64,000 nucleotides of DNA from Clostridia bacterium (GCA_029061605.1 JAIDRT010000011.1:43374-107373), one strand, 5' to 3'; positions 4,116 through 8,792 are shown, counted from the first letter of the stretch. Program-made: numbers and translations. The notes: generated by a model from the sequence alone, not told the origin.

Positions 4116-7100
4116 TTATGCAAGAGTACTTGCTCCTGCTTTTCCAGGACTACCAGATTTACCTGGACTGCCTATTTCTCCGCGTCTTTCATTGCCCCAA
4201 ATTGTAGTTACAGGATCACCTGGGTCTCCGCCTAGACCGCCATCACCACCTTGACCACCTTTGCCTGCTATACATATCAAATCATTATAATTACCTGTAT
4301 AGTTGGAGTACACTATGGCTTTTCCGCCGTCGCCGCCGTCACCGCCTAGACCGCCAGTACCTCCATTACCAGGATTGATAGTTGTAACACCGACAGAGCC
4401 GTTTCTACCCGCTCCGCCTTTACCGCCTTTACCACCAGTACCGCCATTTCCACCATCGCCTCCAGTGCAAGTCAACTTACTACCAGCAGTCAGCACTACG
4501 TTTCCTGGGAAATAGATTGCAACCGCGCCATCGCCGCCATTTCCTCCATAAACTCCATCTAGTCCATTTTTTCCAACTTCTTTTTGGGCTTCCGTTTCAA
4601 TGTTTATAAATCCAACCGCCCCATTTCCGCCTTGAACGTTAACTTCCGACGCGCTAATAAGCAAATTCTTACCTGTTTCATTACACTTTATGCCGGCTGT
4701 AGCCCTACTCAATATAATGTTTGTAGGACTATAAATACCATATAGAATTTGATTTCCTCCATTTATAGTAATCTTCTTTCCCAGCAATGAAAGATTCTGG
4801 CATAGTATAGCCGCTTCACTGTAATCTTTAGTTACCTCTCCTGCAGAAAGTGTAACGCTGTTATACGAATATATTTCCAAATCATTGCATCCAGACGCAT
4901 CTATAACACTAGAATTGCTCTTTGCCTTCATTGATATGCTATTAAAATTGATTACCAATTTGGCACTTCTGGAATTTACCAAAATATTGGTATCAGTGCA
5001 TTTTCCATTGACAAAAGTCACTTCTTTTGCGCTTGAAGCAATGGTGAAGGTCATATTTGTCAACAACGAATATTTAGAGCAATCCACATAGGTACATTCG
5101 TCAGATATTGTATAATCTTTGAGTGAAGAAGCCGTTATACTCGTTCTTGTAAAGGTTGCTTTCAATGACGCTGACAAGGTTACCCCACTTACTTCACTAT
5201 AATATTGATTGATACCAAGATTTGCATAATTCAAGGCTGTGATTGCGCTGCCGTTCAAAGTCCAGTTGACGAACTTGTATGCTCTTACGTAAACCGACTT
5301 AAGCGTTATGTTGCCTTGGCTGCCTGAATAAGACGTTGGATTGCCGCTACCTGAATGACTGTAACTCAAAGCGACGGTGATTGGTGAACTAACAATGTTA
5401 GTATTTACAATCACAGATTTATTCCCATTTCTCCAATAAGATGTTAAATTATCAATCATAATTTTCCCTTTATTAAAAGCAACTGTTATTTTGGTTGATG
5501 ATGCAGAAACTTGCGTCTCAAGCAACACATTATATCCATAATAGTTCTTAACTTCGTAACCATAATCACCCAGCCCATTAAGAATATATCCTTCTTGTGG
5601 AATTTCAATAATCTTATCATTTATTTTTATTGCATACTTCACATTACCAACCTCTGGACTTAAACGGACAAGAGTATGATCATAGTTTCCATCACCATCG
5701 TAATCTATATTGAATTCGCTTCCGTATCCTGGCGTGAGATCAGGGACCTTAGAGCCTGATACAAATTCAATTATGTCTTCCGAGTCATCACTGACCTTCC
5801 AACCAATAAGGCATTCTTGTGCATCTCCAAAATAAAATGCTACTGATGGAAATACGGAATTAGTTATTGTTTCCCCATAAAAAACAGGTTTAGTCGTTTT
5901 ATAAATTTTTGAATTAATAATGAATTCAATCAAATATATTTCTTTCTGCCATACTGGCGTAAACTCATAATAATCGACGTCTAAAACAGACCCTGTCTTT
6001 TTATATTCAAACGTCTCAAGGAAATAACCTTGTTTCTTACCCTCAGTGATTTTGACAAAGTCACTCTTCATATTTACAAGCAATTCAATGACTTGACCTT
6101 CGAGATAGGCCTCGCCAGGTTTTTGCGACGTGATTTCACTTCCGTCCCACCATTTTGACGCGCCGTTGCCCACGTGGATTTCCATAATAATGCCTCTCAA
6201 CGTCCAATCCGCAACCAACGTCATTTCGTCTTCAAGCAATTCCTCGTGAGTTACTCCGTTGCCGTCTGTGATCAGCGCGCCGTTGTACTTCCAGCCGTTG
6301 AAGTCATATCTATCTTTAGCAGGCACAGGCAGATGCGCAATCTTGCCGTAATAGTACTTAGCGCCAGTAGTGTCGTTGTAGACTTCGCCGTCAATTTTGA
6401 ACGTGACGTCTACTTGTTGAAGATATTCTTCAATAGTAATATTGTATGCTCCGCTGTCTTTGACAATGATATAATATTCGCTTGCTTCAAGTAAGTAACC
6501 GTGGTCAAGTTGAATTTCGTTGAACGCGCTGTCATAGATAGCAAGACAATTTGAGTTGTTGATATTTATATCAAGTCTTGATCTTTCTTCTATATTCAAT
6601 TTAAATACGCTGTAAGGACTGTCCGCATTGATATTATTTGTACCAAGGCTCAGCGCGTCTCCGTCAAGGTATACTTTTATCACGCCGCCAAATTGTCTCT
6701 TGACAATGCGATAAGTCGTATCGTTTTGCAAAACGCATTGATTTACGCCTTGCGCAACAAGGGCATCTCCGTCATATACGTCATATGCGCCGTCGTCAAA
6801 TTTATAGAGCGCTGTCACAGCAGGAGTAAATTTGAACATCTCATTGAAAGTATTTTGAGTTGTCAATTCCTCGCCAATATTGAGATATGCAAAAAGCGTT
6901 TGCTCCGAAAGGCTCATTGACATATTGCCTTGACTTTGAGATTGTAAGAAATAAGTTTCATTTGCCTGCAAGAATGCGTTATTGCTTGGATATATATCCA
7001 TATTCTCGTCATAAAGCATTGCGTTTGCGGCATTGTAAAATTGAGTGTATCTTGGCGAATAGGAGTAATACAATCCTGGGATATCCGAATACGGATAGTT

Positions 7101-8792
7101 CTCCACCGTCATTCCGCTTTGTTTTTCGACCGTCAGATCTTGCGCAATGCCAGTTCTGTTGACGCAAACAACGCCGTATACTTCGTTTGCCTTCATTGGA
7201 TAGTTGACATACAACTTGCCGTCTTTCTTTGCGGCTTTTGCCAAGACGTTAAGATCTCCATCCGTAATATACAAATCAATAAATTCGGCGTTATCCCCAG
7301 CGTCGAGTATATAAACGTCATTGCGAGCAGTATTGCTCGACTCTACCTCGTAAGCAATTTCTCCCACTTGAGTAGGCTCATTGATATTCAATTGCTGATT
7401 CTTTTGAATTGCTATATTTGTAAAGGCTATCTCACCGTTATAAAAGTCTTCTGGCAACATTCTCGCATATAATTTATCGCCCATAGCCATTCCCAAACTT
7501 GAAGCAATCCCCACTTTGCAACCGCTTGAGTTGACCGTGATTCTATTGCTCGATTGCGCTTTTCCGTTCACTGACAAATAATAGCCGTTGGGCACGTAAA
7601 TGCTGTATTCCCCTTGTTGAGCAGGAACAAAATTAAAGAGATTTGTCTTTGCCATTGGCGCAAATCTTTGATAATTTTCGTATTCAAACTTTTCGTCTTC
7701 CTCCGTAACTTGACCATATTTATTGCAATCTGTTCCTGTAACGCTGTAGACGCTTTCAATTGAACAATTTTCTGTTACGTTATGATGTTCTATACCGCTG
7801 AAACGACAAATGTCAAAAGATATATTGTTATATACATAATAATCTTGATTATTGTCATTCATTACTCTAAAAGAAGCCGTAACATATTCGTCGCTTTGCG
7901 CCAAATATTCATCTGCGCCGTTTTCCATATCTAGTGATACGTTCTTGCGCAAACCGCCATACATATTTTTCTGTTGTTCTCTCGTCAATGGAAAATCAAG
8001 CGCAATACCACACTTGGTTGTATCTTCCCAATACTTTCCTTGCGCATTTACAAGACTTAAGCACAAATTTGCAGATGCAAAAGCAACTTTTGCCCCTGCT
8101 AACACAGCGCTTGCCGGCGGAAATGCGACTGCAATAGCCACTGATACTATAGACGCGCCTACTTTAATTGCGGTTTTAGCCACTTCTTTTTCATTGAAAT
8201 AAGAAAGTTGGTTGTCATATCTTGACTGTATATAATATACGCCACCGTCAGTCCTATAATCATAACTTCCATCCATAATATTGTTATTCATTTGACTATC
8301 AAATAGACAATTATTAAATTTTACGTTTGATAGCGATATTTTATATGGCGAACTGGCATTTAAAATGTTATTTCCACTCTTAAAAAACGAATTTTGATAT
8401 ACAACTTTCAATGATACGTCATAACCGCCGCCGTCAGAATGAGGCGTGTATATTTCTTTAAACAACAATACGTGATTGGTACCAGCATCACTGAATATTA
8501 CAAATCCGTAATTACGTCCGTTATATATTGTCGTTGTGTTTGTATTAAACTTGCTGATTGGTACATATTGCTTGATGTTGTTCCTATCAATTTTATCAGG
8601 TAATTCCTGATTTGTATATGAAGAAAAATCTTCATATGAGTTAGATGTTGTTACGATCTCTGCATTGTTACTAATTTGCTCTTCACTGCACTCTGCCGTA
8701 TATGTAGCGCCAAATACAAGACATAGTGAAATCACAAGTAGCACAATGACCGCAATAAGATTAGTTGTAATGCTTTTTCTTTTGCTGCGCAT
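4116..8792 (-). CDS. Giant cell-surface protein (1558 aa): N-terminal signal/anchor, Listeria-Bacteroides-type repeats, beta-helix-like region, glycine-rich/collagen-like C-terminus
   Basis: The ORF is uninterrupted. I place the start at ATG 8792, 5 nt after GGAGGG (the track start 8828 has no RBS). The hydrophobic N-terminus is NLIAVIVLLVISLCLVFGA. Motifs such as YDFNGWKYNG, CLIGWKV and YKFVNWTLNG are typical of Flg_new/List_Bact repeats. The C-terminal ~190 aa is rich in GGxGGxGG runs and ends in GSPGKSGSPGKAG triplets. Confidence 0.85.
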   Translation of the reverse strand: MRSKRKSITTNLIAVIVLLVISLCLVFGATYTAECSEEQISNNAEIVTTSNSYEDFSSYTNQELPDKIDRNNIKQYVPISKFNTNTTTIYNGRNYGFVIFSDAGTNHVLLFKEIYTPHSDGGGYDVSLKVVYQNSFFKSGNNILNASSPYKISLSNVKFNNCLFDSQMNNNIMDGSYDYRTDGGVYYIQSRYDNQLSYFNEKEVAKTAIKVGASIVSVAIAVAFPPASAVLAGAKVAFASANLCLSLVNAQGKYWEDTTKCGIALDFPLTREQQKNMYGGLRKNVSLDMENGADEYLAQSDEYVTASFRVMNDNNQDYYVYNNISFDICRFSGIEHHNVTENCSIESVYSVTGTDCNKYGQVTEEDEKFEYENYQRFAPMAKTNLFNFVPAQQGEYSIYVPNGYYLSVNGKAQSSNRITVNSSGCKVGIASSLGMAMGDKLYARMLPEDFYNGEIAFTNIAIQKNQQLNINEPTQVGEIAYEVESSNTARNDVYILDAGDNAEFIDLYITDGDLNVLAKAAKKDGKLYVNYPMKANEVYGVVCVNRTGIAQDLTVEKQSGMTVENYPYSDIPGLYYSYSPRYTQFYNAANAMLYDENMDIYPSNNAFLQANETYFLQSQSQGNMSMSLSEQTLFAYLNIGEELTTQNTFNEMFKFTPAVTALYKFDDGAYDVYDGDALVAQGVNQCVLQNDTTYRIVKRQFGGVIKVYLDGDALSLGTNNINADSPYSVFKLNIEERSRLDININNSNCLAIYDSAFNEIQLDHGYLLEASEYYIIVKDSGAYNITIEEYLQQVDVTFKIDGEVYNDTTGAKYYYGKIAHLPVPAKDRYDFNGWKYNGALITDGNGVTHEELLEDEMTLVADWTLRGIIMEIHVGNGASKWWDGSEITSQKPGEAYLEGQVIELLVNMKSDFVKITEGKKQGYFLETFEYKKTGSVLDVDYYEFTPVWQKEIYLIEFIINSKIYKTTKPVFYGETITNSVFPSVAFYFGDAQECLIGWKVSDDSEDIIEFVSGSKVPDLTPGYGSEFNIDYDGDGNYDHTLVRLSPEVGNVKYAIKINDKIIEIPQEGYILNGLGDYGYEVKNYYGYNVLLETQVSASSTKITVAFNKGKIMIDNLTSYWRNGNKSVIVNTNIVSSPITVALSYSHSGSGNPTSYSGSQGNITLKSVYVRAYKFVNWTLNGSAITALNYANLGINQYYSEVSGVTLSASLKATFTRTSITASSLKDYTISDECTYVDCSKYSLLTNMTFTIASSAKEVTFVNGKCTDTNILVNSRSAKLVINFNSISMKAKSNSSVIDASGCNDLEIYSYNSVTLSAGEVTKDYSEAAILCQNLSLLGKKITINGGNQILYGIYSPTNIILSRATAGIKCNETGKNLLISASEVNVQGGNGAVGFINIETEAQKEVGKNGLDGVYGGNGGDGAVAIYFPGNVVLTAGSKLTCTGGDGGNGGTGGKGGKGGAGRNGSVGVTTINPGNGGTGGLGGDGGDGGKAIVYSNYTGNYNDLICIAGKGGQGGDGGLGGDPGDPVTTIWGNERRGEIGSPGKSGSPGKAGASTLA

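Follow-up and report, generated by a model that had tools for sequence, protein, structure and literature searches.

The window that we analysed, a 64,000-nt stretch of DNA from a Clostridia bacterium, encodes on its minus strand a giant protein of 1558 aa that appears to be part of an undescribed envelope system and not an ordinary adhesin, because its gene adjoins genes for unusual MacB-type ABC transporters at every locus except one. We infer, tentatively, that this giant protein most likely serves in the envelope or in target binding and carries an exchangeable tip for binding. The gene order is conserved: a membrane-bound XRE regulator, a 159-aa exported protein, the giant protein and then one to four MacB-type ABC-FtsX fusions. 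The features of the locus in the window are as follows.

1..598, minus strand: 5´ part of a second ABC-FtsX fusion, which is 999 aa long in the source contig and continues beyond the window
767..3763, minus strand: ABC-FtsX fusion 1, 998 aa (Pfam ABC_tran and FtsX)
4116..8792, minus strand: giant exported protein, whole ORF (1558 aa plus stop; P0001; 22 full-length homologues)
8863..8942, no strand assigned: 21-bp tandem repeat, 3.9 copies, with TTGACA boxes, directly upstream of the giant gene (found by TRF)
9091..9570, minus strand: 159-aa exported or anchored small protein, the upstream partner (hydrophobic N-terminal segment 13-31)
9586..10221, minus strand: membrane-bound XRE (HTH_3) regulator (Pfam HTH_3; C-terminal TM segments 128-146 and 172-190; position conserved)

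The frame of the giant protein is open over 4116..8828 (minus strand) in the ORF listing, and the start codon is likely the ATG at 8792, with GGAGGG, a ribosome-binding site, just 5´ of it. The 1558-aa product of this start matches database protein P0001 with no differences, and all strings quoted from the sequence in the initial annotation are present in it. That annotation had raised the possibility of a disrupted ORF; the frame is intact, and its overall dN/dS of 0.17-0.23 indicates purifying selection. The 21-bp repeat is a candidate promoter and operator array for the giant gene. Promoter-like sites lie ahead of the gene at 8930-8902 and 8853-8824, and a strong terminator-like hairpin (9063-9036) is found between the repeat and the upstream gene pair.

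ABC-FtsX fusion 1 has the MacB-type topology, with an N-terminal NBD, TM1, a ~570-aa extracytoplasmic domain and TM2-4 (TM segments at 275-293, 868-886, 912-930 and 959-977). The first 300 nt of the second ABC-FtsX gene are 95% identical to its paralogue. One to four such fusions follow the giant gene in every locus with downstream DNA, over a range of 33-73% identity between loci, and the only exception to the linkage is L005, an outlier that is 25% identical. Orthologues of the 159-aa protein, 38-69% identical, occupy the same position in L001, L008-L012, L015 and L016, and family searches with this protein gave no match. No relatives of the ~570-aa domain were found outside this operon type. 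The identity of the ABC extracellular domain follows that of residues 251-440 of the giant protein (rho 0.74), and that of the solenoid (0.23) and Gly region (0.42) least, a correlation confounded by shared phylogeny. The closest models to the NBD are Lcn972-type, LolD, FtsE and MacB, and NCBIfam matches it best to the ABC family of lactococcin-972-type bacteriocins. The giant-protein locus is often situated among defence and accessory genes.

The giant protein itself is divided into the following regions.

8691..8792, minus strand: residues 1-34, predicted Sec-type signal peptide or signal anchor (KD, AF2 and motif)
7473..8630, minus strand: residues 55-440, family-specific beta domain, the most conserved (motifs and Foldseek)
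8043..8177, minus strand: residues 206-250, stem-loop-like insertion in the N-domain, a hairpin of hydrophobic or amphipathic character whose tip is Pro-Pro (AF2 and variability)
6423..7424, minus strand: residues 457-790, beta-sandwich array, HA70 D3/ColG collagen-binding/PPC-like (pLDDT about 90)
5121..6407, minus strand: residues 796-1224, Flg_new (InlB B-repeat) at 796-840 and further beta-grasp-like units (Pfam and Foldseek)
4638..5120, minus strand: residues 1225-1385, all-beta, solenoid-like region, first half of the C-terminal module (pLDDT >90, all strands)
4119..4637, minus strand: residues 1386-1558, Gly-rich tail (Gly content, period 3, AF2 and Foldseek)

The N-terminal signal or anchor described initially was found at residues 12-30, a basic plus hydrophobic segment with a KD of 2.96. 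Residues 1-34 consist of a basic n-region, a 17-19-residue hydrophobic core and a polar c-region ending TYTA|EC, and a TA[ED] motif behind the core is common to most homologues. In the AF2 model a helix at 6-28 is followed by a disordered linker (27-52). The n, h and c regions ending in Ala appear shaped like a cleavable Gram-positive signal peptide, which argues against an envelope location, since the protein may then be released and not anchored.

Residues 55-440, whose conserved motifs in the homologue alignment include NGRNYGF and DFPLTR, have no sequence relatives that we could find outside the giant-protein family. The top Foldseek matches of the N-half model are to Clostridium botulinum HA3/HA70 (E 6e-6 to 1e-4, prob 0.9-0.97), with low TM-scores (0.11-0.16) and with the aligned query residues not given by the tool. 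The model makes this domain a candidate HA70/CPE-type aerolysin-like module. The hairpin inserted in it accounts for the internal hydrophobic stretch of ~45 residues reported earlier, AIKVGAS...LCLSLV, at residues 208-248 (two 19-residue windows with KD 1.78 and 1.72). AF2 places helices at 201-223 and 228-249, with a low pLDDT of 45-49. The hairpin, 34-58 residues long across homologues, is hypervariable and out of step with overall identity (11% identical to P0002, 91% to P0003); its pS against L011 is 0.08, compared with 0.35-0.79 for other parts.

These findings bear on a serious alternative, possible in our view but on balance doubtful, namely that the giant protein is secreted as a large toxin or bacteriocin that forms pores and to which the ABC proteins give immunity. 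The signal would be cleaved and the protein released, a C-terminal polyglycine-II (PGII)/solenoid tip would bind the target cell, the HA70/CPE-type N-domain would oligomerise, and the helical stem loop 206-250 would refold and enter the target membrane. The one to four ABC-FtsX paralogues, perhaps with the 159-aa protein, would shield the producer by expelling inserted toxin, as in Lcn972-type, BceAB or MacB systems. The HA3/HA70 matches favour this scheme, and LukE leukocidin and the pore-forming 4i0n appear lower down, but the TM-scores are low, HA70 itself is no pore former and true pore formers were matched weakly (prob 0.2). The alpha-helical stem loop of HA3 and CPE (PMC5654971) matches the low-confidence helical hairpin between conserved strands, and the hairpin has a turn-like tip and partly alternating large hydrophobic and small residues. 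Many hairpins, however, are uniformly hydrophobic and not amphipathic, with a beta-type hydrophobic moment not consistently above the alpha-type, and those of the three most divergent members are short and polar. The variable ABC copy number, the NCBIfam match of the NBD and the location among defence and accessory genes are in line with a toxin, and MacB-type ABC proteins are not normally needed by adhesin loci, a further point against an envelope role. Against a toxin, 1558 aa is far above the size of known beta-PFTs, and our searches found no sequence-level link to any toxin family.

In the middle of the protein, residues 457-790 gave Foldseek matches to 5iku, 4qd2_F and 5sv5 (each prob 1.0). 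The initial annotation listed several Flg_new repeats here. One, at 796-840, is found at the Pfam level, scoring 20.2 bits when the whole protein is scanned and passing the threshold (GA 27), with 28.2 bits, only when scanned by itself, and Flg_new was matched in 17 of the 22 homologues. The second candidate is a single weak Flg_new_2 match (E 0.1), and further beta-grasp units in 796-1224 are suggested by the model and by Foldseek, which matched 9cd2, a multi-ubiquitin protein, and 7nms, an InlB B-repeat (prob 0.95).

The Gly-rich terminus, estimated at ~190 aa in the initial annotation, is borne out by a Gly content of 33.5% in the last 173 residues, compared with 6.9% in the rest of the protein. 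The tail is made up of five blocks, each with six G-x-x triplets (Gly runs at 1407-1424, 1444-1470, 1475-1492, 1510-1527 and 1538-1555) with short beta segments between them and one hypervariable loop (1493-1509). The homologue survey proposed earlier revealed, across 22 homologues (25-100% identity), a period of 3 in Gly columns that are invariant or nearly so, and the enrichment is not due to chance. AlphaFold2 models the last ~180 residues mostly at pLDDT >90 (85-98), DSSP assigns neither helix nor strand to the Gly runs, and Foldseek weakly matched the tail to the snow-flea AFP 3bog (24% identity, E 0.08) and to gp38 9v85. Because of the period-3 Gly, a tail dN/dS of 0.33-0.44, the pLDDT and these matches, the tail is predicted to be structured and not disordered. 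Confidence values, the DSSP string and weak Foldseek matches (E 0.08-0.75) point to a predicted PGII bundle on the solenoid-like region, which itself has a periodicity of ~22-25 residues and weak matches to the parallel beta-helix enzymes 6k0m and 7o7a (E 0.5-0.9).

We regard it as highly improbable that the tail is mere low complexity without module identity, be it a disordered Gly-rich linker, a collagen triple helix, an RTX calcium beta-roll or a PE_PGRS relative; its Gly keep a strict period of 3 and its pLDDT is high. The composition does resemble PGRS and RTX, with GGxGxD hexamers such as GGNGGD and GGLGGD, and the final 16 residues are G-x-y triplets with two prolines. However, Pfam gave no Collagen, HemolysinCabind, PE or Gly_rich match at E<=1, the period is 3, whereas RTX repeats are 9-mers whose position 8 is hydrophobic, positional conservation is strong, and a profile retrieves the tail plus its non-Gly flanks in hundreds of proteins. 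The label "PGRS-like" does not hold in the family sense, as there is no PE domain and the source is not mycobacterial; nor does "collagen-like" in function, given that the longest unbroken G-x-y run is nine triplets and most triplets are GGx.

The 330-residue C-terminal module, formed by residues 1225-1385 and the tail, is not covered by any model of Pfam or NCBIfam. Profile A4 (330 positions), which retrieves the module in other proteins, matched 1501 representatives of 50%-identity clusters at E<1e-3 and 189 at E<1e-10. By this profile the module appears to be common to at least several hundred other exported proteins, in which it has no annotation, and the terminus is not unusual for Firmicutes-type exported proteins, contrary to what had been supposed. 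Of the 148 best matches, 96 have the end of the module no more than 10 residues from the C-terminus, and 130 no more than 50; a hydrophobic N-terminus is present in 95 of the 144 proteins that are complete. Its partner domains, which point to a binding tip, are Flg_new, BspA LRR_5, SLH, alpha/beta-hydrolase, MACPF with a lectin, and CDC, where the module follows CDC domains 1-3 in place of the C-terminal membrane-binding domain D4. The CDC and MACPF fusions, together with the HA70/HA3 match, favour the toxin; the CDC-plus-module protein has no ABC-FtsX neighbour.

The tip is, on sequence comparison, exchangeable, because it differs between otherwise near-identical proteins. Relative to L011, residues 1-790 are 84-98% and the ABC proteins 90-97% identical, compared with only 48-52% for the module. 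For P0004 the identity is 98-100% over 1-54 and 457-790 but falls to 47-49% over the module. Hairpin and tip are mosaic and recombining, as in polymorphic toxins. An alternative that we consider improbable is that the module is a new non-covalent cell-surface anchor, comparable to SLH, CWB2 or GW, with the N-terminal domains of the giant protein as the functional end. Its near-constant position at the extreme C-terminus, behind domains as different as hydrolase, LRR and CDC, is the typical wall-anchor pattern, and the giant protein has no other recognised wall anchor: as noted initially, LPxTG-like motifs are absent and Pfam gave no SLH or choline-binding matches. However, in SLH fusions the anchor is N-terminal and the module C-terminal, P0115 carrying three SLH domains already; the CDC and MACPF fusions put the module at the site of target-membrane or receptor-binding domains; an anchor that binds a conserved polymer of the producer would be expected to stay conserved itself, whereas near-identical operons recombine and diverge most in the module; and the N-terminus and hairpin already offer membrane attachment.

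In the preferred reading, the ORF would encode an envelope protein of several domains, exported by the Sec route, in an uncultured gut bacterium that is Christensenellaceae-like. Its signal/anchor and hairpin, the latter borne by the HA70/CPE-like beta domain (55-440), may keep the N-terminal end at or in the cytoplasmic membrane. Residues 457-1224 would form a stalk of beta-sandwich and beta-grasp domains, and residues 1225-1558 a distal, exchangeable tip that would bind a target, organised as in the phage gp38 long-tail-fibre adhesin, with the five Gly blocks as PGII helices bundled onto the solenoid-like region. The co-encoded ABC-FtsX proteins may be physically coupled to the giant protein and handle it at the membrane, where it could be held, extracted or released by their ~570-aa domains through mechanotransmission powered by ATP. 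The adhesin-like domain content described initially stands in general, but that description missed the ABC-FtsX operon, the HA70/aerolysin-like N-half and the mosaic hairpin and tip, because of which a plain surface adhesin is only one of two live readings.

Among known PGII systems, the gp38 tips of Salmonella phage S16 (PDB 6F45) and PP01 (9v85) are similar in their extreme C-terminal, distal position, in Gly-rich motifs as PGII helices packed on and alternating with beta-solenoid layers (predicted here), in a variable segment between conserved Gly motifs (1493-1509) and in being swapped between otherwise similar proteins. In gp38, a beta-solenoid with 10 PPII helices carries variable recognition loops at the fibre tip (bioRxiv 10.1101/2023.11.25.568672). 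The giant protein differs in lacking sequence similarity or a Pfam GP38 match (tblastn against 50,697 phage genomes gave no match), in being a cellular exported protein and not a virion part, and in its regular 18-residue (Gxx)6 units. The snow-flea/springtail AFP (PDB 3BOG, 7JJV) and the ALK/LTK glycine-rich domain share the GGx/Gxx runs with period-3 Gly, and no fold type other than a two-layer PGII bundle is known to be adopted by such sequences with high order (PMC11364801). Their organisms and contexts are unrelated, with no ice-binding or receptor-kinase context here, and the bundle of the giant protein is appended to a solenoid-like region. Mycobacterial PE_PGRS proteins are likewise of GGxGGx composition, are predicted by AlphaFold to form PGII sandwiches, and are surface-exposed, polymorphic and recombining (PMC9436101); the giant protein has no ESX/type VII secretion context, is not from an actinobacterium, and has a short Gly region (~170 aa) interleaved with beta segments.

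HA70/HA3 and C. perfringens enterotoxin (CPE) resemble the N-half in that an alpha-helical hairpin or stem loop is inserted into a core rich in beta structure, behind which come jelly-roll sandwiches; HA3 and CPE have the pore-forming architecture of aerolysin but with an alpha-helical stem loop (PMC5654971). The giant protein, without sequence similarity to them, is 2.5-5 times larger, and its hairpin is far more hydrophobic and hypervariable. Its partners resemble MacB, LolCDE, FtsEX and Lcn972-type (type VII) systems in the N-terminal NBD fused to a four-TM FtsX-type permease and in the large extracytoplasmic domain between TM1 and TM2. Such systems act by mechanotransmission on extracytoplasmic or membrane-embedded substrates (PMC5985334). 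The extracellular domain of MacB is much smaller than ~570 aa. Among the genes described here, no adaptor protein or TolC partner was recognised. The giant-protein operons also differ from these systems in their one to four tandem paralogues and in having a 1558-aa protein as partner in place of a lipoprotein, peptide or hydrolase activator.

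The giant gene occupies a minus-strand ORF of the window extending from 4116 to 8828. The first ATG with a ribosome binding site (GGAGGG, 6 nt upstream) is at 8792, and translation from this position gives a 1558-aa protein identical to the database protein P0001. The ribosome binding site and the database protein length led us to prefer this start, and the longer ORF starting at 8828 was discarded. This is the protein described in the initial annotation, and all of the sequence strings quoted there were found in it. Disruption of the ORF had been named as a ground for rejecting that description; the gene is intact and, with dN/dS of 0.17-0.23 for the whole gene and 0.33-0.44 for the tail against four homologous loci, is under purifying selection. 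Kyte-Doolittle analysis (19-residue window, threshold 1.6) recovered both hydrophobic regions noted earlier, at the N-terminus (residues 12-30) and internally (residues 207-225 and 230-248). The reported lack of an LPxTG, SLH or choline-binding anchor also held, with no LPxTG-like motif detected by regular expression and no SLH or CW_binding match by Pfam in the giant protein. Several Flg_new repeats had been proposed, but Pfam recognised only a single, weak one. PF09479 scored 20.2 bits at residues 796-840 in the scan of the entire protein and 28.2 bits for this segment alone (gathering score 27 bits), and no further repeat reached the gathering score; the model is matched by 17 of the 22 homologues. 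Beyond Flg_new, Pfam returned nothing for the giant protein, and NCBIfam and PADLOC gave no match.

The last 173 residues are 33.5% Gly, compared with 6.9% for the remainder of the protein, and contain five 18-residue blocks:

Residues 1407-1424, Gly block 1, six G-x-x triplets
Residues 1444-1461, running on to 1470, Gly block 2, six G-x-x triplets
Residues 1475-1492, Gly block 3, six G-x-x triplets
Residues 1510-1527, Gly block 4, six G-x-x triplets
Residues 1538-1555, Gly block 5, six G-x-x triplets

A survey of the tail in homologues, as had been suggested, revealed a strict three-residue period of Gly columns in the family alignment, each of them invariant or almost so (1407/1410/1413/1416/1419/1422, 1444...1462, and onward). 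Segment 1493-1509, between two of the blocks, is hypervariable, with indels. The tail has the sequence pattern of the polyglycine-II helix (PGII) class, which takes in snow-flea antifreeze protein, gp38, the ALK glycine-rich domain and Obg-N, with conserved in-register Gly at every third position or GGx in several segments of at least three triplets.

The terminus had been called PGRS-like and collagen-like, and neither term applies in the sense of the known families. PE_PGRS proteins are mycobacterial ESX-5 substrates in which an N-terminal PE domain (~110 aa, PF00934) precedes a PGRS region of long GGA/GGN repeat arrays. A Pfam scan of the giant protein at E<=1 found no PE domain, and the N-terminus is a Sec-type signal. 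Membership was ruled out, as the tail has just the five 18-residue Gly blocks and the homologues all come from Clostridia/Christensenellaceae MAGs. Bacterial collagen-like proteins carry a long unbroken G-X-Y array that is triple-helix capable and is caught by the Collagen model PF01391. This model had no match in the giant protein at E<=1, and collagen was ruled out by a longest unbroken run of 9 triplets, mainly GGx, and a terminal run of 6 triplets. RTX/T1SS substrates, which have tandem GGxGxDxUx nonapeptides followed by a C-terminal secretion signal and are paired with an HlyB-type ABC protein and MFP, were likewise ruled out: the tail period is 3, not 9, the neighboring ABC proteins are FtsX/MacB-type, not HlyB-type, and the N-terminal signal is Sec. 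Pfam gave no HemolysinCabind (PF00353) match in the giant protein.

Two AlphaFold2 models, covering residues 781-1558 and 1-800, were built from the 22-sequence alignment. In the C-terminal half (mean pLDDT 85.6), residues ~1225-1385 are all-beta with pLDDT >90. The Gly blocks that follow have mean pLDDT values of 85-98, and DSSP assigns the Gly runs neither helix nor strand ('other'). Period-3 Gly sequences that are highly ordered yet lack regular secondary structure are typical of PGII bundles, and we liken the tail to such a bundle; the Gly runs would then share the geometry of the class, a left-handed backbone with helices packed in two or more layers. AlphaFold predictions of PE_PGRS proteins are likewise PGII-type (PMC9436101). 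Foldseek comparison with the PDB gave weak matches to the snow-flea antifreeze protein 3bog (24% identity, E 0.08, multi-domain C-terminal query) and to phage PP01 gp38 (9v85, E 0.75). Beta-grasp proteins, among them the InlB B-repeat (prob 0.95), were also among the weak matches of the C-terminal query. In S16 gp38, ten PPII helices are interleaved with beta-solenoid layers at the very tip of the tail fibre, and this tip bears variable recognition loops (bioRxiv 10.1101/2023.11.25.568672). PDB sequence searches with whole-family, module (residues 1225-1558) and N-domain (residues 55-440) profiles, and with the tail alone, returned artificial GGS linkers or nothing.

The module is found well beyond the giant protein. 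A 330-position profile of residues 1225-1558 (A4), searched against 1.84 billion cluster representatives, gave 1501 matches at E<1e-3, 189 at E<1e-10 and 23 at E<1e-30. The E<1e-3 count is probably inflated because Gly composition is biased, and at least one listed match, the SecA-like P0123, appears compositional. Among the best 148 matches, the end of the module lies no more than 10 residues from the C-terminus in 96 and no more than 50 in 130, and 95 of the 144 complete proteins have a hydrophobic N-terminus. Its partner domains are varied:

Flg_new arrays
BspA LRR_5 with Flg_new
Alpha/beta-hydrolase with LRR_5 and Flg_new
Three SLH domains with Flg_new (P0115)
A cholesterol-dependent-cytolysin (CDC) domain (P0090)
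MACPF with a C-type lectin (P0077)

Given the match counts, the end position, the N-termini and the partners, we conclude that the module is common, C-terminal, extracellular and combinable. The module-bearing proteins are all unnamed in the source databases. CDCs carry a C-terminal membrane-binding domain; in P0090 (locus L023, 8001-10274; CDC domain at residues 68-377, lipoprotein-like signal) the module comes after the cytolysin domain and takes this spot. The Gly-rich region that P0090 and P0077 have in common may represent a new kind of targeting domain in CDC and MACPF proteins. A tblastn search of 50,697 phage genomes for a phage origin of the module gave no match; Foldseek against BFVD matched gut-phage tail proteins, but the match was not attributable to one domain. 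Collectively, these data firmly establish the Gly-rich terminus as a C-terminal domain of exported proteins that is conserved, folded and modular, and that is not PE_PGRS, collagen, RTX or a linker. The feature singled out in the initial annotation is real, and bigger than was supposed.

For the giant protein itself, a search of 5.8 billion proteins identified 22 full-length relatives (1448-1628 aa, 25-100% identity). In 185,579 scanned species genomes there were 13 loci, which all belong to MAGs of uncultured Christensenella, Christensenellaceae or Clostridia, and the mouse gut is the source of many of them. Metagenome samples with the operon include SRR14411258 and ERZ14208416. A search for N-domain relatives outside the family returned just fragments of the same family. 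On the source contig, the operon has the following order:

First, a membrane-bound XRE regulator (HTH_3 plus 2 TM segments)
Second, an exported protein of 159 aa
Third, the giant gene (4116-8792, minus strand)
Fourth, two ABC_tran-FtsX fusion genes of 998 and 999 aa (767-3763 and 1-598, both minus strand, the latter leaving the window)

The ABC proteins match Pfam ABC_tran and FtsX and have MacB-type topology, with an NBD, TM1, a ~570-aa extracytoplasmic domain and TM2-4 (TM segments at 275-293, 868-886, 912-930 and 959-977). The NBD is nearest to Lcn972-type bacteriocin ABC, LolD, FtsE and MacB models, all below equivalog cut-offs. In the independent loci analyzed (33-73% identity to the window protein), one to four ABC genes directly follow the giant gene wherever downstream DNA exists, the sole exception being an outlier at 25% identity (L005). 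The 159-aa and XRE genes are usually upstream. A role for ABC-FtsX as general exporter or processor of the Gly module was ruled out, as P0090 has no ABC-FtsX neighbor. Since, in addition, a search for relatives of the ABC extracellular domain found the same operon type only, the ABC partnership is a trait of the giant family rather than of the Gly module.

We also noted several features of the operon DNA. A 21-bp tandem repeat (3.9 copies, 8863-8942, consensus TGTCAACTTTGCTTAACACAT, with a TTGACA box in every copy) lies in the interval from a strong terminator-like hairpin (9063-9036) to the start of the giant gene. The membrane-bound XRE regulator encoded nearby may use it as an operator array. 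From the giant stop to the ABC start runs a 340-bp spacer (3775-4115) with a long inverted repeat, tgtcaccttgagcg ... cgctcaaggtgaca, at about 3860-3945 and a good TG-extended promoter-like site at 4100-4072; no canonical terminator was found in it. The 5´ coding regions of the two ABC-FtsX paralogues (1-300 and 3166-3465) share 95% DNA identity over 300 nt, whereas the full-length paralogues of related loci differ from each other much more strongly, which suggests gene conversion of the NBD start. The leader upstream of the two paralogues also looks repeated, with the same 'RMRFLNCARNDINIY' reading frame. In the L006/L007 lineage, a sigma-70-like gene, a Peptidase_C39_2-like gene and a gene for a 221-aa protein replace the XRE and 159-aa genes, and a rolling-circle Rep gene is near.

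Comparison of the giant protein with homologues revealed a mosaic:

Identity to the window protein by segment
P0002: residues 1-54, 100%; 55-440, ~69%; hairpin (206-250), 11%; 457-790, 99%; module, 96-99%
P0004: residues 1-54, 100%; 55-440, ~70%; hairpin, 11%; 457-790, 98%; module, 47-49%
Locus L011: residues 55-440, 84-92%; hairpin, 98%; 457-790, 91%; module, 48-52%; ABC, 90-97%

These segment-wise identities show that blocks are exchanged. Against L011, pS is 0.08 in the hairpin and 0.35-0.79 elsewhere. Pairwise identity of the ABC extracellular domain correlates best with giant residues 251-440 (rho 0.74) and least with the solenoid (rho 0.23) and Gly (0.42) parts, correlations that are suggestive only because the loci are phylogenetically related. 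A frame break near residue 155 interrupts the giant gene of one Christensenella MAG (L014, 10001-14732), and this copy is a pseudogene unless the assembly is wrong. The best-supported role of the module is that of a distal binding tip, judging by where it sits in the protein, the domains it is joined to, its recombinational exchange and the analogy with gp38. A new type of wall anchor is improbable, given that P0115 combines SLH domains with the module and that the module is the least conserved part between sister operons.

The N-terminal half (mean pLDDT 78) was modeled as follows:

Residues 6-28, helix
Residues 27-52, disordered linker
Residues ~85-440, beta domain, broken by the hairpin
Residues 201-249, helical hairpin between strands, low confidence (pLDDT 45-49)
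Residues 457-790, beta-sandwich domains, well predicted

The best PDB match by Foldseek was C. botulinum HA3/HA70 (E 6e-6 to 1e-4, prob 0.9-0.97), with a TM-score of just 0.11-0.16 and aligned query residues that the match does not specify. ColG collagen-binding, PPC and GOLD sandwiches were also matched, and leukocidin and the pore-forming protein 4i0n weakly. HA3 and C. perfringens enterotoxin (CPE) have an aerolysin pore-forming architecture, but with an alpha-helical stem loop (PMC5654971). The stem loop of this subgroup is flanked by long beta-strands; in the model of the giant protein, the low-confidence helical hairpin (201-249) interrupts a run of strands. Most members have a hydrophobic hairpin (best 19-residue Kyte-Doolittle score 1.4-2.2), often with Pro-Pro or charged residues at its tip, and the three most divergent proteins have a short, polar one; hydrophobic moments gave a mixed result for beta versus alpha amphipathicity.

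We infer function here entirely from sequence, models and context. At somewhat less than an even chance, we tentatively favor an adhesin-like envelope protein that stays on the cell. Release of the protein as a very large pore-forming toxin, with the ABC proteins conferring immunity, is possible but doubtful: the N-terminal half resembles the HA70/CPE subgroup, which has a helical stem loop, yet TM-scores are low and HA70 itself is no pore former, and the fusion of the module to CDC and MACPF, the bacteriocin-type affinity of the ABC proteins and the polymorphic cassettes have to be set against uniformly hydrophobic hairpins and the size of the protein. The two putative membrane-interacting N-terminal elements of the giant protein and the co-variation with dedicated MacB-type ABC proteins suggest that the N-terminal end is handled at the membrane via mechanotransmission.

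A bolder proposal, which we regard as rather unlikely, is that the operon encodes an undescribed antagonism/envelope machine with a membrane-inserting giant protein, a swappable PGII tip, ABC-FtsX extraction and a shared targeting module. The giant protein would be an aerolysin-like (HA70/CPE-type) inserter, with a hypervariable stem-loop cassette setting membrane insertion and the swappable tip setting target recognition. The tandem ABC-FtsX proteins, with their giant extracellular domains, would pull the giant protein out of the producer membrane, leading to immunity or to ATP-driven launch and release. The module would be a general, unnamed targeting domain common to CDC and MACPF pore formers.

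Other genes in the window were also noted. An accessory or defence islet is suggested by a low-GC stretch (10556-14786, 0.29-0.32) adjoining the operon, whose genes encode a BspA-type LRR protein (439 aa, plus strand), a MarR-GNAT fusion and a 596-aa protein with an Mrr_cat restriction-endonuclease domain. Homologous operons in L002-L004 adjoin ThsB_TIR, AbiTii, DUF2726-helicase and methylase genes. A second very large minus-strand ORF (35034-40346, 1770 aa) has no Pfam match and no paralogy with the giant protein. The stretch 21345-24887 has a long ORF on each strand (1179 aa, plus; 933 aa, minus); the two overlap, and likely just one of them is real.

To our knowledge, ordered PGII bundles are limited to a handful of solved proteins (springtail antifreeze proteins, gp38, ALK/LTK, Obg and acetophenone carboxylase), and the natural repertoire would grow greatly with a family of several hundred or more unannotated C-terminal modules from bacteria. 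The module family would also provide gut-bacterial surface proteins, hydrolases and CDC/MACPF pore formers with one testable targeting domain. The strict linkage of the giant and ABC genes suggests that a monoderm-type (Firmicutes-lineage) bacterium may put mechanotransmission to a new use, such as to handle a very large protein that interacts with the membrane, or to confer immunity to it. Since Christensenellaceae are an abundant yet poorly studied gut group, an envelope or antagonism system that recombines and varies among its strains is relevant to colonisation and to competition between strains. Neither a family model nor a publication on the module, the giant family or the operon turned up in the databases and literature searched. 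The predicted fold class, a PGII bundle on a solenoid, and the MacB-type ABC class are known already, and what is new is their use here; the closest analogue of the C-terminal arrangement of the giant protein is the tip of S16 gp38.
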